Positions 4,388 through 56,878 of a stretch of DNA of 64,000 bases are shown here, in pieces. Under the pieces are notes generated by a model. The model was not told the DNA's origin. It saw nothing but the letters and a program-made list of their open reading frames with translations, and made no database searches. Numbering within the stretch: the first letter of the stretch is position 1; each line of letters opens with the position of its first letter. Location: contig JAQTMG010000003.1 in the NCBI GenBank assembly GCA_028714455.1, positions 39,834 through 103,833 of the forward strand, written 5' to 3'. A program made the position numbers and the translations under genes. The DNA comes from Patescibacteria group bacterium (GTDB lineage: Bacteria; Patescibacteriota; Patescibacteriia; CAIXNZ01).

Positions 4388-4498
4388 AATAAATCAAATT
4401 TATCATAAATCCCAGAATATTTCAACCCATAATCTTGACTGAATTTCTTAATAATGATAATGTCAAATCAGAACATTAAAAACAAAAAGGAGGAAAAA

Positions 4499-4867
4499 AT
4501 GAACGAAAGAAACGATTGGATAGTAAAGATACCTCACTTGTTAAAACCCGCGGCAATAATCGCTATCATTGGTGTAGTCGGGTTGGCTATTTTGGGAATG
4601 GTTCCAAGGCCCCCCTATTCTCATGCGAGCCAGATTGCTCCGAAACCATCATTTGAAATTTCAGTACTCGTTCCTGACCGGGTGATTTTAATCAAGGCGC
4701 ATCAACAGATGCTAAGCACCCGTATCGTAGATACCACAGACAATTTGAGTCTTGGAATCAAGGAAATTTCCAAGAAGTACGACATCAAAAACATTGCGGC
4801 AATTAACCAATATATTGATAACGGCTCGGTGACGGGTTCATTGCTGGTCATTGTTGAGCCAAAGTAA
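4499..4867 (+). CDS. Hypothetical small membrane-anchored/secreted protein
   Basis: AGGAGG RBS 8 nt upstream of ATG 4499 and one TM segment (AAIIAIIGVVGLAILG). The ORF track shows a longer form from 4454. Confidence 0.4.
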   Translation: MNERNDWIVKIPHLLKPAAIIAIIGVVGLAILGMVPRPPYSHASQIAPKPSFEISVLVPDRVILIKAHQQMLSTRIVDTTDNLSLGIKEISKKYDIKNIAAINQYIDNGSVTGSLLVIVEPK

Positions 4868-4910: not shown

Positions 4911-5029
4911 TTTAAATCTTGACTAAAGTTGAAAAATATATTAAAATACGAAGGCAGTATTGTTAACAAAAATCTTTATTTTTGTTATACTTATTTTAAC
5001 CAATTACTGGTTATTTTTTGTTTCAGCAT

Positions 5030-5104
5030 CGCGGGGTAGAGCAGTGGCAGCTCGCCGGGCCCATAACCCGGAGGTCGCGGGTTCAAATCCCGCCCCCGCA
5101 ACCA
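5030..5104 (+). tRNA. Initiator tRNA-fMet (anticodon CAT)
   Basis: Cloverleaf with a C1:A72 mismatch, three G-C pairs in the anticodon stem, loop CCCATAA, T-arm GCGGG-TTCAAAT-CCCGC and an encoded CCA. It is near-identical in architecture to E. coli tRNA-fMet. Confidence 0.85.
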
Positions 5105-5307
5105 GATTCATGGTGGGGGTTTCCGCCGTAGGCGGACCCGCCTCTGGCGGGCAAATCCCGCCCCCGCAACCAGATTCATGGTGGGGGTTTCCGCCGTAGG
5201 CGGACCCGCCTCTGGCGGGCAAATCCCGCCCCCGCAACCAGATTCCTGGTGGGGGTTTCCGCCGTAGGCGGACCCGCCTCTGGCGGGCAAATCCCGCCCC
5301 CGCAACA
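5105..5307 (+). repeat. Three tandem 68-nt direct repeats, each ending in the last 20 nt of tRNA-fMet (AAATCCCGCCCCCGCAACCA)
   Basis: Units at 5105-5172, 5173-5240 and 5241-5307. The third has an A>C change and lacks the CCA. Each unit is GATTCATGGTGGGGGTTTCCGCCGTAGGCGGACCCGCCTCTGGCGGGC plus the tRNA 3' end. Confidence 0.9.
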
Positions 5308-5327
5308 ATGAAAATTAAAATTATTTA

Positions 5328-5400
5328 GATCCGGTAGCTCAGTTGGTAGAGCACCTGCCTTTTAAGCAGGGGGTCCTGGGTTCAATCCCCAGCCGGATCA
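5328..5400 (+). tRNA. tRNA-Lys (anticodon TTT)
   Basis: GATCCGG acceptor, GCTC/GAGC D-stem, anticodon loop CTTTTAA, T-arm CTGGG-TTCAATC-CCCAG; no CCA encoded. Confidence 0.9.
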
Positions 5401-5606
5401 TAGGTTAATGGCTTGCCAAGACTGGCAAGCTTTTTGCGACCCCCTGCTTTATCAAAGCTACACAAAGAAGTCCTGCCTGCCCGCCGTAACGAAGTGAAGG
5501 CGGGGGTTCAATCCCCAGCCGGATCATAGGTTAATAGCTTGCCAAGACTGGCAAGCTTTTTGCGACCCCCTGCTTTATCAAAGCTACACAAAGAAGTCCT
5601 GCCTGC
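5401..5606 (+). repeat. Duplicated ~100-nt segment (tRNA-Lys 3' half + 80-nt downstream unit containing a terminator hairpin)
   Basis: The 80-nt unit TAGGTTAAT(G/A)GCTTGCCAAGACTGGCAAGCTTTTTGCGACCCCCTGCTTTATCAAAGCTACACAAAGAAGTCCTGCCTGCC appears at 5401-5480 and 5527-5606. Between the two copies a second copy of the tRNA 3' end (GGGGTTCAATCCCCAGCCGGATCA, 5503-5526) is preceded by a CCCGCC..GGCGGG hairpin. Confidence 0.85.
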
Positions 5607-5637
5607 CTCTAGCGAAGGCAGACCGGATTATTATAAG

Positions 5638-5664
5638 AATTCCCCCGTCACGGGGAATTTTTTG
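5638..5664 (+). terminator. Rho-independent terminator
   Basis: ATTCCCCCGTCACGGGGAAT hairpin followed by TTTTTT. Confidence 0.55.
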
Positions 5665-5751
5665 ATATTGACATTATCAAAATAATGTGCTAGAATTATT
5701 AATTAGTTGACAGAATCAAAACCAAAAATAAAATCCAAAAGGAGGGAAAAG

Positions 5752-6456
5752 ATGAGGACATTTACCGTAATCACTTCTTTAACCGACGGAGTTCTGAAGC
5801 ATGAAATTTTCGATTTCCTCATCCCCAAAAAGAATGAGGAACGGGCGGGAGAATGGTTTCTCCCTTTCGGTTCCACGCGGATTCCTCTTGGCAAGAGGGA
5901 TCTGGACAAGCTCCTGCAAACTGGCTGGAAGAAAATCCCGTGTTCTGCCAGGGGTGAGAGAAGGTGGAGCGGCCAGAAATCGGCCCAACCGCTGATCTGC
6001 GACAAGTGCGGAGAAAAATATGGCAACTGGCAGCCTTACAAAATCGGATTCGAATGCTTTCACCCGGCAAACGGCGAGATGGTCTTGAGCGACAAAATCA
6101 TCAGTAACGCCTTCTGCCTAAAACTGCGCGACAAGTACACGGAAGAGTACAGCGGTAAGCTTCTGCTTGTCGCGCCTGACAAGGAGCAGGAGGAAGCGCT
6201 CATTCACTGGGATCTCTCGGATCATGCGGCGCTCTTCGAAGATGGGCGAATCATAGCCCAAGACACCTGGCCGTTTCGAACCAACCATTATCTCGTTGCT
6301 CTGAAGCCAGGTTCGAGCCTGCCCGCCATCAAGTCTCATGAACAATCCGCCGCTTACACTCTGGTTCTTTCTTTCGACGGCAACAGCGTCCACGTGACCA
6401 AAAAAGAGTTGGTTGCGAGACAAGAAGTCTCTGACCAGGCTCAAATCTCGGCCTAA
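5752..6456 (+). CDS. Hypothetical protein with Cys cluster (CDKCGEKYGNW..ECFHP), in a GC-rich island
   Basis: AGGAGGG RBS before ATG 5752. Local GC content is clearly above the window average and no known family was recognised. The ORF track gives a longer form from 5707. Confidence 0.5.
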   Translation: MRTFTVITSLTDGVLKHEIFDFLIPKKNEERAGEWFLPFGSTRIPLGKRDLDKLLQTGWKKIPCSARGERRWSGQKSAQPLICDKCGEKYGNWQPYKIGFECFHPANGEMVLSDKIISNAFCLKLRDKYTEEYSGKLLLVAPDKEQEEALIHWDLSDHAALFEDGRIIAQDTWPFRTNHYLVALKPGSSLPAIKSHEQSAAYTLVLSFDGNSVHVTKKELVARQEVSDQAQISA

Positions 6457-37794: not shown

Positions 37795-38460
37795 TTATTT
37801 TTTAATATCGTCAGTTAGTCGGGGATAATTCAAACTGGTATATTGCCAATTTTCAGGCAAGCCATGCTTCAAATGATTATAAACTGTATAATTATAATGA
37901 TGATCCCAGTCCCTTTGCTTTTTTAAATGATTTTGATGAAAGCGGATAAAGTGGTCGTAAAAAGATAATTGCCATTTAAATTTTGGGTAAGGACTGCTAT
38001 TGCCAAATTTTTTTATAAATTCTTCCTTATAATGTTCAAGGTTTATTTTCCTCTCATTAAAATCATCAAAATTCCCATTAAATAAATTAAGCAACCTCAT
38101 CCTCATCCTTCGTAGGCGAAACGACGTCGTTTCGCCTACGAAGAGCGGTGAATTTTGATTAATCGTATATCCCATCACAATATTAACATTGCGTGAAAAA
38201 TTTTCTTTTAACGATTTGATTATTTTTGAAATATTATATTGGTTATTAGGTTCAATTATTAAATTAATATGATCATAAATTATGGAAAAGGCATACAGCT
38301 TAAATCCCTTTAATTGTTTACAAATCCCTAAATTCTCAATAAACAAGCTGCAAAAAATCGTCTCTTTAAAATATGGGAAATTATTCTTCGTCTTGATTAC
38401 GATGTAATATATAGCACCTGGAAAATATATCCGCTTAGAATAATTTTTGTGCAATTTCAT
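37795..38460 (-). CDS. IS200/IS605-family Y1 transposase-like protein (RAYT-like, HuH degenerate) carrying an in-frame palindromic insertion
   Basis: N-terminal YYIVIKTKNNFPYF, a degenerate HuH (DHINLI) and a C-terminal SFYDHFIR..Y motif shared with the paralogs at 53983 and 56300. A 38-bp perfect palindrome CTTCGTAGGCGAAACGACG/CGTCGTTTCGCCTACGAAG at 38111-38148 is translated in-frame (SFRLRRMRMR). Confidence 0.5.
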   Translation of the reverse strand: MKLHKNYSKRIYFPGAIYYIVIKTKNNFPYFKETIFCSLFIENLGICKQLKGFKLYAFSIIYDHINLIIEPNNQYNISKIIKSLKENFSRNVNIVMGYTINQNSPLFVGETTSFRLRRMRMRLLNLFNGNFDDFNERKINLEHYKEEFIKKFGNSSPYPKFKWQLSFYDHFIRFHQNHLKKQRDWDHHYNYTVYNHLKHGLPENWQYTSLNYPRLTDDIKK

Positions 38461-44030: not shown

Positions 44031-45256
44031 TTAATATTTCCCAATATTTTTTACGTAAGTTCCTGCTTCGCCCGAATAACGAATCAAAAAAACGTCATAA
44101 AGAACCGCGTCTACCTCTTGCCACAAATTCTCGGCCGTTTCTCTAATAATGAAACACTGCATGCCGCTTAGCTTAAGATACAACGGCCAAATTTTTGTCT
44201 CAAAATCATCCTTTTGTTCAAGCGCTTTTTTTAGGTTAAAAATGGTCAGGCGCAAACGCAACTTAAACTTCCGAGTATTGCGCACCTGGCCATCAACCAC
44301 ATTCAGTCCTAACGTGTGCAGAATATGCCCTCGTCTGGCAAAATATGATTTATGCAAATAGTAGCGCTGATAATAGGCTCCTTTATTTTGCCACCAACCA
44401 TCTGGGTCAGGCGCCTCTTTCAGTTCATAACCCCTTTTAGCGATACGAAAAACCGCTGAAATAACGGGCGCATGCCACACAATGCAACCGCGATATTTCT
44501 CAATATCTTCCTGACCCGCTGGTTTCACAAAGTAATCGTCAGCGGAGGGATCATCTGGCCGTTCTTCGCCGCGCTCAATGTGTCTTTTTTTTGTTTCCGG
44601 CCAAAATTCTGGCGCTGTGATAAAAATGTTGTCCGCGTAACGTACGTAAGTACCCCTGATGTTCTTGGCTAGCTCGGAAAGCTCGTAATCAAAGGGTTCA
44701 AAACAAAAATCAAACAAGCGCGGGCTGGTTGGCGCGCCTTGTGGCAAACCAAAAGCCGGTAGCCCCTTTTTCTTTTGATTAAACCAGGTCGTCAAACAGG
44801 TCAAATAATAAGAGGCGTAATAACCGTACTTTTTTGACTTGAAAAAATTGAAGACCGCGCGACCGCTTGTCGAAGGAAAAGCATCCTTCACGTCAGTCGT
44901 AAAAACCGCCTGGTCTGCCTTAGCAATAGCCAATGCCGCCTCTTTGACTCCACCGCCAGAAAATCCATAGACATTTCTATGACGGTCCAGCGGCTCAAGA
45001 ATATTTTTGTTGACAGCCCGCTGAATTGTCATCAAATCAGGGTGCGGAATCTGTAAAATTCTTCTGCCGCCGCTTCTTTTAGCAATTGTAATGGTTGAAT
45101 AAAGCCATGGACTCCTGACAATTGCCGCCCACAAAATTCTACGGAATTTTTCGAAATCATTAAAAGGATAATTCAGTTCAGCGAACAAATACCAGGCTGC
45201 TTTTCTGCCTGATTCCCTTAATAAGGGATTTTTAATGCGCTCACGCGATTTCAACA
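44031..45256 (-). CDS. Stand-alone reverse transcriptase (retron/DRT-like; motif C = YADN)
   Basis: RT motifs in order: 1/2 RRILQIPHPDLMTIQRAV, A FTTDVKDAF, B' GLPQGAPTSPRLFD, C YVRYADNIF. The proposed start is TTG 45256, 8 nt after AGGAGG; the ORF track's ATG 45383 would add 42 aa lacking an RBS. GC content is elevated. No maturase, endonuclease or other fused domain was recognised. Confidence 0.75.
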
Positions 45257-45294
45257 ATATTATCACCTCCTTTCCATGTTTTTTGTTTTCAAAG

Positions 45295-45695
45295 AAAAGG
45301 GAGGGGTAAATTCCCCTCCCACCGCTGGTTACTCGCGAATCGCAAGCTGTGCGTGTACCGATCAAGAACCGGGTGATTTGCATATTGCCGTCAGAATTCT
45401 GACAGCCCCTTTCGGCTATTTTAGGATCTCTTAGGGTTCCGGCAATAAAGCTAACTGTCTTGATCTAATTTCGGATTTTAGGGTTAGGGAGGGGTGCAAG
45501 ATTTATACATTTACTTCAAGTTTTGGTTATCCCCTCTCCTTCTAATTAAACCGAATTACCGAGCCAGTTACCTTCGCCGAAAATTATCTAGAGAAGGATA
45601 CGCAGTTTATGTACCTAACTCAAGTTTCGGCTAATCCTTCTCTTTATCCTATTTGGCCTCAAAGCTCGCTAACCAGCGAATGATAATACTTTAGT
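45295..45695 (-). ncRNA. Candidate RT-associated structured ncRNA (about 380 nt) directly upstream of and co-oriented with the RT
   Basis: Minus-strand promoter-like TTGACT-17 nt-TAAAGT at 45716-45688. Two paralogous long hairpins have conserved loops (AAACTTGA..GTA.ATAAA) and different, individually complementary stems (GAGAAGGAT/ATCCTTCTC versus GGAGAGGGG/CCCCTCC). There is a 14-bp palindrome GTCAGAATTCTGAC. The 3' end is a GC-rich hairpin GGGAGGGG-AATTTA-CCCCTCCC followed by TTTTCTTTG just before the RT RBS. Confidence 0.4.
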
Positions 45696-53982: not shown

Positions 53983-54564
53983 TTAATATTCAATGAAATC
54001 TGTTTTAAAAATTGATTGATCACCGATTTCATAATTTCGCCAGGAAGAATAGGGATATTTTGAAATATCTTCAACTAAGCGAGCAGAAATCGGATTGTTG
54101 TGGATATAATTTAATTTTTCGTTAAATTTCTTGCCAGAATAGATATTAAAGTCGTAAAAACTGGGCTGCCAGATTCTCCTCATCCTCCGGGTAGCCAAGG
54201 CCCCTGCGCCTTGGCTTTTTAAGGGCAAGGCGTATGAGCCTTGCCTACCTATAAAAGAGATGGGTGGGTCTTGCCGACCCGACATGGAATCAAATAAATA
54301 TTCATTAATCAACCTGGAACTATATCCTTTCACCCCGTGCATTATTCTGGAAATGGTTAATTTCGGATTTTCAAAATAAACCAACAAATGGACATGGTCA
54401 GGCATAATACAATACCCATATATCTTCAAATTAAATTTTTTCCGATAATAATCGAGGTTATCTAAAAACAACCGACAGCATTTATCATCTGTAAAAAATT
54501 TTTGTCTGCCGTGTGTATTGGCCGTTACAAAATGGATATGACCCAAATCATTAAATCTGTGCAT
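53983..54564 (-). CDS. IS200/IS605-family Y1 transposase-like protein (RAYT-like) with in-frame structured insertion
   Basis: HuH motif MPDHVHLLV and C-terminal YDFNIY..NYIHNNPISARL (RAYT-like). A roughly 110-bp insert at 54178-54290 contains hairpins CCAAGGC..GCCTTGG and GGCAAGGC..GCCTTGCC and is translated in-frame (RRMRRIWQ..). Confidence 0.6.
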   Translation of the reverse strand: MHRFNDLGHIHFVTANTHGRQKFFTDDKCCRLFLDNLDYYRKKFNLKIYGYCIMPDHVHLLVYFENPKLTISRIMHGVKGYSSRLINEYLFDSMSGRQDPPISFIGRQGSYALPLKSQGAGALATRRMRRIWQPSFYDFNIYSGKKFNEKLNYIHNNPISARLVEDISKYPYSSWRNYEIGDQSIFKTDFIEY

Positions 54565-54575
54565 CTAATTTCCGT

Positions 54576-56273
54576 CTACGTGTGCGGCACAATTACAATC
54601 TTATCCTCGCTAATCGAAGTCGCGTTCGCCGTTGCTGTCAGCGGACTGAAATCTCCCACTAACGCGATGTCCGCGCCAACATTATAGTTCACGAAAAACG
54701 CGTCGGCCACGTCTTGGACTAAAGTGGCCCAATTATCGCCATAAAGAGCTTTGGCCAGCGCTTCGGTTTTTATCCAGCGCAAAGTACCGTGGGCATCAAC
54801 CGCGTACACTTTCGGATCAGTTGTGATTTTTATCAATTTTACACCCGGCTTATACGTCACATTGCCGCCGATGGAGATGGCCGCGAGTTGCGCGTCGGTA
54901 ATCGTCTTGACTGTTGAAAAATCCGGATACCAGGTCAAATACGTATTGAGCGTGGGAAAAACATAGCGCTTGCCGTCAGTGGCATAATAATAAACAGCCG
55001 GACCCGATGCCTTAATCAAATCGCCGTAAGAAATATTGGCCCCGACCAGTCCGGGCGCGTTAATCGTAATTGAGAGAGTGCCGATAACCTGATTATCCAC
55101 TTTAACTGATACTGTCTTAACGCCCAAAGAGGTGGATCTTGCTTCAAAAATTATTTTGCCGTTCACGTCTGAATTATTATTAGGAATAGTGATGATAACT
55201 CCCGAACTGGCGTCGACCACGATTTGTTTATTGGGAAGTGGCTGCCCCATGGAATCCTTAATGGTCACGGTAATGGTTGATTTATCTAAGCCATCATTGG
55301 CCAAAACGATTTTATCGGCCGCGACCGAGGAATTGGAGACCGAGAATGTCTGCGCGTGCGCGCTGACTGTAATCGAGCCTGTCTGCGTAAAATTTCCCCA
55401 GCCATCATGGGCCTGCAAACTGATGGTGTGCGTGCCGTCGCTGATGTTTTCCCAGTCGTAACGCCAGGTGTAAAAATTAACATCCATTTCCTGCACTGGA
55501 TATTCCTGACCGTCAATAAAGATATTGAAATCGCGGATATAACTGCCGCCCTCGTCTCTGGCCATGCCCTGGATCATTAAGCTGTTGGTGTTTAAAATCT
55601 GGCCGTCAAATAAATTGGTAATAACCAGTTTGGGTCCGAACATATCAATGGAATAGGTGCTGACTACCTGGCTGTTCGCGTTTGTCACATTGTCATCGGT
55701 CGGTCCGTTATTTTTGGCAGCCGTGAAAACGCCGAAATCGCCCACGTCAAAAAGGCCATTGGCATTATTGTCCGTAAGAATCGGAATCTGCATCAAAATC
55801 GTGGCCGTACTCGTGTAGTCGGAGAATGTTTCTACGGAGACAAAAAATCTTTTGCCAATGCTTGCGCTTTCATTCAAATTTTGAATATACCAAGATTCAT
55901 AAGTCGTGGTGTAATTAAAATTGCCGATTACCCGGTCAACACCCATGCCTTGAAATCCGGCTGGCCCGTCATCGGCCCAGAGCGTCATGTATTTTATATG
56001 GCTTAAATAATTGGCCGTGCCCAGATTTTTCAAGCCGAGAGCGTTAAGCGTGTCTGTGCCGCTGATATTAAGCGTGAAATCCATAATCAGGCCGTCAAAA
56101 GTCGCTCGATAAAAAGTCGCGTAAGGCGCCTGCAGGTTAATAACTGAACTGGTGGTAAAGGCCAGAGATGGCTGCGCGCCCAAAATCGTCAGCGCCAAAA
56201 TCGCGATGATGATAAAAATTTTTCTTCCGCCAAAGGCAGACCCGCCTCTGACGGGCATAATGTTTTTTTGCAT
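54576..56273 (-). CDS. Membrane-anchored surface protein with Ig-like (Big) domains and C-terminal shared ~115-aa domain
   Basis: N-terminal TM/signal, Big-like beta-sandwich repeats and a C-terminal block AVYYYATDGKRYVFP..DPKVYAV..LRWIKTE. Confidence 0.5.
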   Translation of the reverse strand: MQKNIMPVRGGSAFGGRKIFIIIAILALTILGAQPSLAFTTSSVINLQAPYATFYRATFDGLIMDFTLNISGTDTLNALGLKNLGTANYLSHIKYMTLWADDGPAGFQGMGVDRVIGNFNYTTTYESWYIQNLNESASIGKRFFVSVETFSDYTSTATILMQIPILTDNNANGLFDVGDFGVFTAAKNNGPTDDNVTNANSQVVSTYSIDMFGPKLVITNLFDGQILNTNSLMIQGMARDEGGSYIRDFNIFIDGQEYPVQEMDVNFYTWRYDWENISDGTHTISLQAHDGWGNFTQTGSITVSAHAQTFSVSNSSVAADKIVLANDGLDKSTITVTIKDSMGQPLPNKQIVVDASSGVIITIPNNNSDVNGKIIFEARSTSLGVKTVSVKVDNQVIGTLSITINAPGLVGANISYGDLIKASGPAVYYYATDGKRYVFPTLNTYLTWYPDFSTVKTITDAQLAAISIGGNVTYKPGVKLIKITTDPKVYAVDAHGTLRWIKTEALAKALYGDNWATLVQDVADAFFVNYNVGADIALVGDFSPLTATANATSISEDKIVIVPHT

Positions 56274-56299: not shown

Positions 56300-56878
56300 T
56301 TAATTTAAAATGTTAAATTCAACCGCCTCTTTGGGATTATCACGATCAAATTCCCAATTTACCGGATTATTGGCAATATATCCTTTTATCCGCGCGTAAT
56401 CTTCATCGTTTTTGATAATGTGTTCGTAATAATTATCTTGCCATTTGAAATCAAGGTTATTTTCATGGCATTTGCGCGTAACGGCACCTTTAAATGTATT
56501 AACGACAGACGATAATGATTTTGGTTTGACGTGGCCAAATTTATTCCGTGTAGAGACAGGGTATACCCTGTCTCTACAATTTTTTGCAAAATCATTTTCG
56601 TCGCATTCAATTTCAATTATCCCATGAACATGATTTGGCATGATTATCCAATCGTCCAATCTTATATTATTAAAATGCTTTGGTATCTCCAACCAACAAT
56701 CAAAAACGACTTTCCCAACCTCCGATAAATAAACATTATTATCCTTAATTTCACCCAAATCGTATATTCTGTCTTTGGTGCAAATTGTCACGAAATAAAA
56801 ACCTCCTTTGGCATAATCCCATTCCATCAAACGCATACTCGCCACGCGATATTTATTTTTAAAATATTCGTCCCCCAT
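56300..56878 (-). CDS. IS200/IS605-family Y1 transposase-like protein (RAYT-like) carrying a copy of the GTAGAGAC palindromic repeat in-frame
   Basis: HuH motif MPNHVHGII and C-terminal WQDNYYEHIIKNDEDYARIKGYIANNP (RAYT-like). The core GTAGAGACAGGGTATACCCTGTCTCTAC lies at 56549-56576 inside the ORF, translated RDRVYPVSTR. Confidence 0.6.
   Translation of the reverse strand: MGDEYFKNKYRVASMRLMEWDYAKGGFYFVTICTKDRIYDLGEIKDNNVYLSEVGKVVFDCWLEIPKHFNNIRLDDWIIMPNHVHGIIEIECDENDFAKNCRDRVYPVSTRNKFGHVKPKSLSSVVNTFKGAVTRKCHENNLDFKWQDNYYEHIIKNDEDYARIKGYIANNPVNWEFDRDNPKEAVEFNILN
56549..56576. repeat. Structured palindromic repeat core, copy 4 (intragenic)
   Basis: Identical to the core of copy 3; no outer GGGGCGAAAACG inverted repeat. 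Confidence 0.85.

Follow-up and report, generated by a model that had tools for sequence, protein, structure and literature searches.

Repetitive extragenic palindromic (REP) elements are known as dimers with 1–2-bp spacers and as in-frame insertions inside genes (PMC3733652). In one account, the REP-associated tyrosine transposases (RAYTs) are described as single-copy and vertically inherited (10.1101/2022.05.22.493013). The transposases of the IS200/IS605 insertion sequences act on hairpins in single-stranded DNA (ssDNA), insert 3' of a fixed word of 4–5 nt without target duplication, and prefer highly transcribed RNA genes (PMC5027513, PMC3201880). The hairpins of Rickettsia and of organelles are inserted in intergenic DNA, RNA genes and, in frame, protein genes, and are kept in the transcripts (PMC3733652, PMC2800124, PMC4478555). 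In phages T4 and T6, break-induced homologous recombination driven by SegB, a GIY-YIG homing endonuclease, gives unstable tandem repeats containing tRNA sequence (PMC13096335). The locus compared here with these systems is an array of three tandem 68-nt units directly behind the initiator tRNA gene (tRNA-fMet) in a 64,000-nt stretch of contig JAQTMG010000003.1 from a Patescibacteria group bacterium. This whole stretch, hereafter the window, is a 40% GC segment of a Candidatus Falkowbacteria metagenome-assembled genome, and its Mur ligase is 72–86% identical to those of other Falkowbacteria. Judged by its letters, each 68-nt unit appears to be what is left of the 3' part of the initiator tRNA gene, without function. 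Most probably, a REP-like 30-nt double hairpin was inserted in this remnant at TT^CAAAT and the composite was amplified to three copies.

The tRNA locus of the window is composed of the following features.

4919–4947 and 4963–4991 (+): sigma-70-like promoter matches 5' of tRNA-fMet, each with 10/12 matches
5030–5104 (+): tRNA-Met(CAT), called by ARAGORN and Rfam (tRNA, 63.9 bits)
5105–5172 (+): unit 1, with the linker at 5105–5111, the remnant GGTGGGGGTT at 5112–5121, the double hairpin at 5122–5151 and the 3' tRNA copy at 5152–5172
5173–5240 (+): unit 2, with the same sequence as unit 1 and the double hairpin at 5190–5219
5241–5306 (+): unit 3, with the double hairpin at 5258–5287 and C, not A, at 5246; it ends in GCAAC and runs into an AT-rich spacer at 5307–5327
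5328–5400 (+): tRNA-Lys(TTT), in the same operon as tRNA-fMet, called by ARAGORN and Rfam
5640–5656 (+): terminator-like hairpin that closes the tRNA locus

The tRNA at 5030–5104 is of the initiator type because it has a C1xA72 mismatch and three G-C pairs (GGG/CCC) in the anticodon stem, and it is a functional tRNA-fMet gene. Tandem Repeats Finder reported a period of 68, 3.3 copies, 99% matches and a score of 439 at 5084–5306. Repeat comparison returned three head-to-tail copies at 5105–5306 with 68-nt spacing and 100/100/99% identity. Both agree with the first-pass annotation, which had recorded three tandem 68-nt repeats after tRNA-fMet with the correct coordinates and unit sequence. The 40-nt core of the unit occurs three times in the window and is never seen in shuffles. 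The sole mismatch among the units is A5178 vs C5246. The units are contiguous, otherwise identical and free of spacers, and the earlier statement that they are not clustered regularly interspaced short palindromic repeats (CRISPR) holds. The tRNA-fMet and units 1 and 2 end in GCAACCA, while the last unit ends in GCAAC-AATG. The CCA is encoded in the tRNA-fMet of the window; relatives end in GCAAC-A, without an encoded CCA. The encoded CCA of tRNA-fMet and of units 1 and 2 comes by chance from the first bases (CA) of the unit. Promoter and terminator prediction found nothing of either kind within the 68-nt array and placed terminator-like hairpins 3' of tRNA-Lys. With no promoter inside the array, the units should therefore be co-transcribed with tRNA-fMet and tRNA-Lys.

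Each unit consists of a 7-nt linker and a degenerate partial copy of tRNA-fMet, GGTGGGGGTT|CAAATCCCGCCCCCGCAAC, with a 30-nt GC-rich double hairpin in the T-loop. The counterpart in the true tRNA-fMet is GGTCGCGGGTT|CAAAT…, that is, GGTCGCGGGTT|CAAATCCCGCCCCCGCAAC or GGTCGCGGGTT|CAAATCCC. The double hairpin lies between T55 and C56, at TT^CAAAT. If the 30 nt are removed, the unit of the window reads …CAT GGT-GGGGGTT|CAAATCCCGCCCCCGCAAC. The single unit of a related genome, L002, then reads …CCCAGAGG…GGTT|CAAAT… (…GGGGTT|CAAATCCCGC), and its true tRNA reads CCCGGAGGTCGCGGGTT|CAAAT…. A unit linked to tRNA-Thr in another relative, L067, becomes ATGGGTT|CAAATCCCACCGTCGGCT without the element, and the corresponding part of the L001-type tRNA-Thr is GTGGGTT CAAATCCCACCGTTGGCT. 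The tRNA-derived partial copy is ~29 nt long and extends from the variable loop and the 5' strand of the T-stem through the discriminator. The first-pass annotation was right to see a remnant of the tRNA 3' end, but the remnant is longer than the last 21 nt and includes the variable-loop/T-stem 5' part GGTGGGGGTT.

The hairpin sequence is TCCGCC-GTA-GGCGGA followed by CCCGCC-TCT-GGCGGG. Both stems are perfect over 6 bp with 3-nt loops, and the two GC hairpins per unit noticed earlier are thus real. The T-arm-like GGCGGG-CAAAT-CCCGCC of the first-pass annotation arises where the 3' arm of hairpin 2 meets the 3' half of the split T-loop. Likewise, the 48 nt that had been taken for the non-tRNA end of an element resolve into ten nt of the T-stem 5' strand and 30 nt of an independent double hairpin, which is also found at non-tRNA sites. 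The whole unit can be folded into a stable three-way junction (-35.5 kcal/mol, z -2.5), the closing stem of which is not formed by the L002 unit; this fold is a by-product.

Other readings of the inner sequence were tried. Naive local alignment to the rest of tRNA-fMet on both strands was no better than shuffles, and the inner 47 nt were rejected as a degraded tRNA 5' half or an inverted tRNA, as their alignments stay at shuffle level. Anchoring at the T-loop after removal of the hairpin revealed the short T-stem remnant that the naive alignment had missed. The reading of GGTGGGG as the acceptor 5' strand of a mini pseudo-tRNA was dropped, since it is the T-stem of Thr (ATGGGTT), and not its acceptor strand, that is retained in the Thr units, and since GGGTT is contiguous with CAAAT. 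CCGCCGTA was rejected as a dispersed motif, its six other matches in the window being unrelated coding sequence.

Seven relatives with the Mur ligase neighbourhood were compared at the tRNA-fMet/tRNA-Lys locus. The states of the spacer between the two tRNA genes are as follows.

Window: three units between tRNA-fMet and tRNA-Lys
L002 (Mur 82%): one unit, consisting of 49 nt and a 19-nt tRNA-end copy, followed by the AAGC junction
L065/L066 (Mur 84%): 4-nt spacer (GCAAC-AAGC-GACTCGG) in identical gene order, a clean empty site
L062/L063 (Mur 86%): an unrelated 122-nt AT-rich sequence
L001 (Mur 83%) and L003 (Mur 72%): a 13-nt copy of the tRNA-Lys 5' end and a GC hairpin

The comparison of occupied and empty sites across relatives, which had been proposed as a check, thus gives Met-AAGC-Lys, one unit and three units. 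By Mur identity, L002 and L065 (91.9%) form one pair of sisters, in which the unit is seen in L002 only, and L001 and L063 (88.5%) form another, in which the Lys-5' element is seen in L001 only. The 68-nt unit type is absent from four of the five close relatives. Between its two carriers, the window and L002, there are nine differences in the first 13 nt of the unit. A scan of 241 million metagenome records for two tRNA-fMet 3' ends 30–60 nt apart, a pattern broad enough to catch any window-type unit, retrieved 15 contigs, none of which is of the window type. The array is thus polymorphic as an insertion, and a syntenic relative has the clean empty site. Because the locus states are patchy across the relatives, it is considered a lineage-restricted insertion that was gained and lost, and no conserved gene.

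The Met-Lys cassette is a rearrangement hot spot, with six spacer states in the seven relatives, an inversion, and remnants of four tRNA species. Among the Mur-selected loci, tRNA-end copies are present only at this cassette (unbiased sample of 48 tRNAs across the collected loci). The cassette is flipped relative to the Mur ligase gene between L002 (4046–4264) and L065 (4103–4252), and likewise between L001 on one side and the window and L003 on the other.

By the comparison of genomes, the 30-nt double hairpin is a discrete mobile element that inserts without target duplication and lies in frame in two protein genes. It is regarded as separate from the tRNA remnant because filled and empty sites are seen between sister genomes and because it occupies non-tRNA locations. 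When the unit was searched against the window by blastn-short, the only significant match other than to itself was between unit positions 17–49, which cover both hairpins, and 56225–56257 (29/33, E 2e-4 to 1e-3). A structural census of the window and its relatives found zero-gap 15+15-nt GC doublets at five independent sites.

Site 1: the fMet units (window and L002)
Site 2: window 56226–56255 (-), in the Big_1/invasin-like open reading frame (ORF) 54576–56273, right after its ATG and 43 nt past a RAYT stop codon
Site 3: the L067 unit linked to tRNA-Thr, of which L003 has a 33-nt variant
Site 4: L003 10143–10172, at the end of the ThiI ORF; the ThiI-bPH junction of the sister L067 is empty
Site 5: L067 5759–5788, 27/30 identical to the copy at L003 10143, at a different position and with no L003 counterpart

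The insertion in the Big_1 ORF is exactly 30 nt, or 10 codons, in frame and without target duplication: CCCGTCAGAGGCGGG + TCTGCCTTTGGCGGA. The orthologous site is empty in L072, which derives from the same sample as the empty-site genome; there, the ORF starts ATG AAA AAA TTT ATC ATC and the gene order is as in the window. The copy at L003 10143–10172 supplies the last codons and the stop of the ThiI ORF (…TTT CCC GCG TAG). The end of ThiI and the start of the Big_1 ORF are therefore two cases of the element being absorbed into coding sequence. The 21 nt ATCCCGCTTTGCGGGACAAAT are identical between the fMet unit of L002 and the Thr unit of L067, and thus one element family entered the T-loops of two tRNA species. 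The Thr remnant of L067 did not come from the resident tRNA-Thr (T-loop TTCAATC, acceptor AGGGGGC) and has another allele as its source.

Over six copies, 95.8% of the cells of the stem alignment are paired and both sides are changed in 7 of the 12 pairs. The stem covariation score is 0.578 vs 0.17 in shuffles (0/500 reach 0.578), and slid controls are 33–49% paired. The hairpins are also present in protein genes and at unrelated sites, so that the conserved stems are a property of the mobile element, not of an RNA gene. Folded as ssDNA, each of the two strands gives a pair of perfect hairpins (-13.4/-13.1 kcal/mol, z -4.6/-4.0). A census of GC hairpins in the window counted seven against 0.9 expected. 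The flanks at the five independent sites, a sample too small to define a word, are TT|CAAAT twice, CT|CATAAT, TT|CATAC and TT|TTTAC. A TT|CA(T)A(A/C)-type flank is thus seen at four of the five, which on the other strand corresponds to insertion 3' of ATTTG or ATTATG.

The array was probably formed in three steps. A partial copy of the 3' part of the initiator tRNA gene would have formed first, and it could be either the relic of an att-type (attachment-site) duplication or a rearrangement provoked by the hairpin element. The 30-nt double hairpin would then have entered the T-loop of the remnant at TT^CAAAT. It might have been mobilised on ssDNA by one of the RAYT-type HUH tyrosine transposases of the genome. 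On the complementary strand, the hairpin lies 3' of ATTTG/ATTATG, in the way that elements of the IS200/IS605 type are placed 3' of a constant word of 4–5 nt. We infer this role of a RAYT only tentatively and consider it less likely than not. Insertions in the T-loop of a live tRNA gene would be lethal and purged, and the element would be visible in remnants only. The number of copies would then have risen from one to three by unequal recombination or slippage between the 19–21-nt direct repeats that bound each unit. The copy number is most simply explained by recombination between these repeats, which could also delete units precisely and would account for both the three near-identical copies and the patchy 0/1/3 distribution. 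A nick or break in the T-loop by an HUH enzyme could trigger the amplification as SegB does. The units would be transcribed in the tRNA-fMet/tRNA-Lys precursor and then discarded during processing. In this reading, the array is a small piece of lineage-specific selfish or junk DNA; it is neither a viral scar nor a new gene for an RNA.

Several observations weigh against this explanation. A doublet adjoins only one of the three RAYT genes of the window, on one side only, and the orthologous RAYT loci L072 and L073 are without it. The GTAG/CGTC tag of REPs is not consistently present in the doublets. The element is low-copy, with four copies in the window, three of them in the array, vs hundreds per genome for classical REPs. 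All tRNA remnants found in Falkowbacteria carry a hairpin element, and neither a hairpin-free remnant nor a remnant-free hairpin at a tRNA was found. Since every remnant comes with a hairpin, the hairpin and the partial duplication may be causally linked, which the two-step account leaves unexplained; there is a hint that the hairpins themselves provoke tRNA rearrangements. The stems of hairpin 2 (CCCGC/GCGGG) equal the T-stem of tRNA-fMet, and part of the element could have arisen locally by palindrome-forming template switches. Moreover, the fMet unit is present in two lineages only, which makes the comparison of the window with L002 effectively one data point, and sequence alone cannot separate amplification by recombination from repeated insertion of the whole unit.

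Such repeated insertion would be expected if the whole 68-nt unit were a mini-transposon targeting T-loops, whose minus strand starts after ATTTG and ends in …GGGATTTG. A RAYT-type enzyme would cut ssDNA in the T-loop of the live tRNA-fMet in an HUH-type reaction, and the replacement 3' end carried by the unit would save the gene and regenerate the target. The borders of the unit fit this idea, being TT^CAAAT on both sides with each unit ending in the word that precedes it, and the element family favours TT^CA(T)AA sites. RAYT genes are present, and insertion 3' of a fixed word, with no duplication, is what IS200/IS605 elements show (PMC5027513). The array is bounded by the original tRNA 3' end and, in L002, the ancestral AAGC junction, as T-loop insertion predicts. 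However, the Thr units of L067 and L003 lie 10–29 nt beyond the intact tRNA-Thr, whose T-loop TTCAATC is without the target, and they bear the 3' end of a different Thr allele. At the non-tRNA sites, the bare 30-nt element moved alone. Neither the window nor the relatives nor the 241 million metagenome records yielded another locus with an entire 68-nt unit, and the identity of the copies is explained equally well by unequal crossing-over. We therefore regard a mini-transposon as unlikely. If it were true, it would be an IS200/IS605-style counterpart of the integrase-dependent elements that carry a tRNA 3' end in attP, their attachment site, and tRNA T-loops would be a dedicated safe harbour for REP-like elements in bacteria of the candidate phyla radiation (CPR). 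The first-pass annotation had preferred repeated site-specific integration at tRNA-fMet, with the 48-nt segment as the remnant of an element end. In the classical form of this reading, a phage, integrative and conjugative element or island is inserted by a tyrosine integrase at the T-loop/3' end of the tRNA, and the segment is the residue of its end after deletion. An insertion relative to an empty site is indeed seen in the relatives, and a duplicated block from the T arm to the discriminator is typical of tRNA-integrating elements (PMC9897764). Plain truncated tRNA-fMet copies also exist in the unrelated metagenome contigs L055 and L061. This reading predicts an integrase-encoding element with CAGATTCATGGTGGGGGTT and the hairpins in its attP or end. 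No integrase was found among the 46 ORFs scanned in the 64-kb window or beside the locus in the called genes of any relative, and only 49 nt separate the repeats. Of the 48 nt, ten are tRNA-derived and 30 are the independently mobile hairpin. No meaningful viral match to the inner sequence exists. Scans of viral contigs gave 0 matches for the duplication pattern, 0 matches for the Lys hairpin described below, and four matches for the inner motif, all by chance in 59–72% GC contigs without tRNA context, and blastn against 50,697 phage records found tRNA homology only. Three separate integrations would each need a deletion to the same base pair, and the amplification of one unit is far simpler. 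Repeated integration is thus improbable.

It is more improbable still that the units are a functional array of tRNA-like RNAs processed into small RNAs, such as decoys for tRNA-binding enzymes or modules for processing or stability. The units lie within the tRNA transcription unit without an internal promoter or terminator, the three-way junction (-35.5 kcal/mol, z -2.5) leaves a free ACCA tail, and a comparison of the window with L002 shows the stems of the hairpins either kept or changed in a compensatory way. On the other hand, the same hairpins occur in protein-coding genes and at unrelated sites, the L002 unit is without the same closing stem, and 9 of the first 13 nt differ between the carriers. 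Rfam, both at gathering thresholds and at E<=10, recognised two tRNAs only, and ARAGORN likewise makes no call on the units; no Rfam or tRNA model matches them. The distribution is patchy, the unit being absent from the nearest relatives, including the sister of the only other carrier, and its type is missing from the metagenome scan of 241 million records; this also speaks against the stable structural RNA that had been offered earlier as the alternative. The least probable reading is that the array or its copy number is an artefact of short-read mis-assembly. The source is metagenome-assembled, and tandem repeats are error-prone there. However, L002, an independent genome, has the same unit at the same place, and unit 3 has a private single-nucleotide difference and a distinct 3' junction. 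The periodic stretch of ~160 nt should be shorter than k plus the period for commonly used large k-mers, and analogous 3 x 76-nt arrays exist in two independent samples (L049 and L053). A GIY-YIG homing element was also tried as the agent and rejected: its association with partial tRNA copies is strong in 8 of the 15 metagenome contigs, but no such gene was found in the window or the relatives L001–L003 and the architecture differs. Thus, a tRNA remnant that received the double hairpin and was then amplified remains the preferred explanation.

The enzymes that could move such an element were looked for among the ORFs of the window. Pfam scans covered 46 ORFs of a non-overlapping set of 63. They identified housekeeping genes, including the dcw cluster, ThiI, CTP synthase, sugar-nucleotide enzymes and glycosyltransferases, together with three Y1 genes of the IS200-like kind and a single reverse transcriptase resembling those of retrons. 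Among the 46 scanned ORFs there was neither an integrase nor a serine recombinase nor a GIY-YIG nuclease, and a GIY-YIG profile search of the window and L001–L003 gave no match. The best NCBIfam model for all three Y1 proteins is RAYT, NF047646, the cutoff of which is 80 bits.

37795–38460 (-): RAYT-like gene, 57 bits for NF047646 (below cutoff), with a long GC palindrome inside the ORF
53983–54564 (-): RAYT, 112.9 bits for NF047646 (above cutoff), PF01797 at E 7e-15
56300–56878 (-): RAYT-like Y1 (HUH) gene, PF01797, 63 bits for NF047646 (below cutoff), syntenic with L072

The gene at 56300–56878 has one degenerate doublet 43 nt downstream, and nothing comparable is seen upstream of it or at the other two RAYTs. 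Its synteny with L072 fits the single-copy, vertical inheritance described for RAYTs. The idea that it forms an IS200-like unit with two GC hairpin regions as its ends was weakened, because the syntenic L072 is without both hairpins. The two below-cutoff RAYT-like ORFs (63 and 57 bits) both contain GC palindromes. In-frame GC palindromes in RAYT-like ORFs are located at 56550–56577, ~38108–38145 and ~54180–54300 of the window and at ~594–621 of L072. One position in the orthologous RAYTs of the window and L072 reads GTAGAGAC-(AGGGTATACCCT or GCGCCATGGCGC)-GTCTCTAC; its outer stem, which is tagged with GTAG, is conserved, and the inner part is different yet palindromic. This palindrome may serve in binding or autoregulation, or be a nested REP. 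The 186-aa RAYT P0121 on the source contig is only 92% identical to the product of 56300–56878, and represents either a near-identical paralogue from another part of this contig or another gene call. The reverse transcriptase (RVT_1) gene is at 44031–45383 (-). Its best NCBIfam models are retron-type reverse transcriptases, all below the curated cutoffs, and it could belong to a retron, a defence-associated reverse transcriptase (DRT) or a diversity-generating retroelement (DGR) type of system.

A second array of the same kind lies behind tRNA-Lys and had been missed by the first-pass annotation. Its features are as follows.

5378–5607 (+): tRNA-Lys array, 1.8 copies of a 126-nt unit in which the last 23 nt of tRNA-Lys appear again (copy at 5504–5526)
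5411–5434 and 5537–5560: terminator-like hairpins of this array
5480–5504: a second hairpin family, CCCGCC-13 nt-GGCGGG (CCTGCCCGCC-13 nt-GGCGGG), in the Lys remnant GTCCTG|..|GGTTCAATCC
5603–5628 (+): a third, degenerate tRNA-Lys remnant, CTGCC-TCTAGCGAA-GGCAG-A-CCGGAT, with the motif CCTGCCTGCC in common with the Lys unit

The Lys hairpin family is located 3' of tRNA-Lys in the window and L002, and, reversed, 5' of tRNA-Lys in L001 and L003 (28/31, E 7e-5). The reversed hairpin in L001 (5732–5783) and L003 adjoins the 13-nt copy of the tRNA-Lys 5' end. Past the terminator, a 12-nt exact antisense match to tRNA-Lys 5364–5375 is seen at 5438–5449 and 5564–5575 of the window and at ~4303–4314 of L002. 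It covers the anticodon-stem/variable-loop region, and its score was reached by 1 of 500 shuffles. The match co-varies with the tRNA: where the window has G/C, L002 has A/T. It may be an inverted fragment of the tRNA that was kept in step, or the pairing may be under selection.

Other tRNA genes of the relatives and of unrelated bacteria are also disrupted or partially copied. At L067 5990–6290 (-), a split tRNA-Gly is represented by a 35-nt ancestral 5' fragment, a complete tRNA-Gly with another acceptor stem, and a 178-nt spacer with a GC hairpin module, followed by the ancestral 3' fragment CCGTATCCCGCTA directly before tRNA-Thr. A GGCGGGCAGGCA module lies beside this split gene. The order of the fragments suggests that the gene was replaced by an inserted cassette with its own copy. 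In the metagenome contigs L048–L054, L059 and L060, which come from unrelated, GC-richer bacteria of other phyla, tRNA-fMet (and tRNA-Pro in L048 and L050) is followed by 1–3 tandem partial copies. Each copy retains an anticodon-loop remnant, CTCATAA, followed by a GC palindrome. The window units are without the CTCATAA remnant. A small GIY-YIG nuclease ORF (PF01541, E 1e-12 to 1e-15) adjoins the partial copies, its stop codon lying inside the tRNA remnant; examples are L051 1398–1900, L049 3030–3618 and L050 3360–3900(-). In L050, the true tRNA-Pro and the GIY-YIG ORF are placed between 5' and 3' partial pseudo-tRNA-Pro sequences, and the palindrome GGTCGCCGCGGCGAC is common to both. This arrangement may be a separate tRNA-targeting selfish element, and no description of it was found in the literature searched. 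In L047/L056, L057 and L058, tRNA-fMet 3'-end copies have inner parts unrelated to either the window type or the GIY-YIG type. L047 and L057 share TTTGTA..GTAGGGTCTTGARCAAATCC, and L058 has a terminator-like hairpin. Because these inner parts are unrelated, short tandem duplications of the tRNA-fMet end arose several times independently.

The ORFs bordering the tRNA cassette, at 5707–6456 (+; 249 aa) and 4454–4867 (+; 137 aa), belong to no Pfam or NCBIfam family. Both are present in L065 and absent in L062/L063, where PvlArgDC and Mur directly border the tRNAs, and they may be accessory genes gained at the tRNA locus. GGCGGGCAGGC is found at 6317–6327, within the 249-aa ORF. Exact-protein look-ups for the Mur ligase, the 137-aa ORF and the RAYT P0121 returned no record.

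Among the known systems, the REP/REPIN elements with their RAYT share many properties with the double hairpin: short GC-rich palindromes in an AT-rich genome, hairpins paired without a spacer, in-frame insertions in ORFs, presence/absence variation in close relatives, RAYTs at syntenic positions, and one copy beside a RAYT (PMC3733652, PMC3116915). The double hairpin is a short GC palindrome that forms a stem-loop in ssDNA, and the genome encodes a RAYT (53983–54564, 112.9 bits). Unlike REPs, it is present in very few copies in the available sequence, with dispersed copies at non-orthologous sites in relatives; its 15-nt hairpins are shorter than typical REPs, and RAYTs are not flanked on both sides nor is their adjacency conserved. 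A fixed terminal GTAG/CGTC tag (PMC3733652) was looked for in the doublet alignment and not found; GTAG is seen in the loop or stem of the window unit, L003 10143 and L067 5759, and not in L002, the Thr unit of L067 or the Big_1 copy. An association of REPs with tRNA T-loops or remnants was not found in the literature searched. The IS200/IS605 elements are similar in having ends defined by hairpins, in their preference for highly transcribed RNA genes and, it appears, in the lack of target-site duplication and in the adjoining short word, ATTTG/ATTATG, which equals TT^CA(T)AAT. In contrast, the element here is 30 nt long with no ORF or Y1 transposase, and the target word is present at four of five sites only; if it is of the IS200/IS605 type, it could only be a non-autonomous derivative. 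Partial tRNA genes at att sites resemble the array in the direct repeat from the T-arm to the 3' end beside an intact tRNA and in the empty site of relatives (PMC9897764). They differ in that their repeats are separated by ~9–23 kb of integrated DNA (PMC9897764), vs 7–9 nt and a 30-nt hairpin here, and the array is a tandem triplication without an integrase. The units amplified by SegB are likewise tandem and contain tRNA sequence, but are ~700 nt vs 68 nt; the units here contain no complete tRNA or ORF, and no GIY-YIG gene was found in the window or the relatives L001–L003.

The Rickettsia palindromic elements, the mitochondrial double hairpins and the GC clusters of yeast mitochondria are similar to the element in being GC-rich hairpins that spread in AT-rich compact genomes, although their hosts are different and no link to tRNA T-loops or tandem tRNA remnants is reported for them. 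In annotation, the array should be labelled neither as the scar of a phage or island nor as a CRISPR, nor yet as a novel gene for an RNA. CPR genomes, usually viewed as streamlined, would hold an active family of 30-nt double hairpins in tRNA T-loops and, in frame, in protein genes. If the link to RAYTs is true, the locus could be a compact model of target choice by HUH enzymes in DNA that is structured and highly transcribed. Separately, each part is already known: the partial tRNA copy (PMC9897764), the REP-like double-hairpin element (PMC3733652, PMC3116915, PMC2800124) and the tandem amplification. The novelty lies in how they are combined and where: a 30-nt double hairpin recurs in the tRNA T-loops of a CPR lineage, and a tandem array is the outcome.

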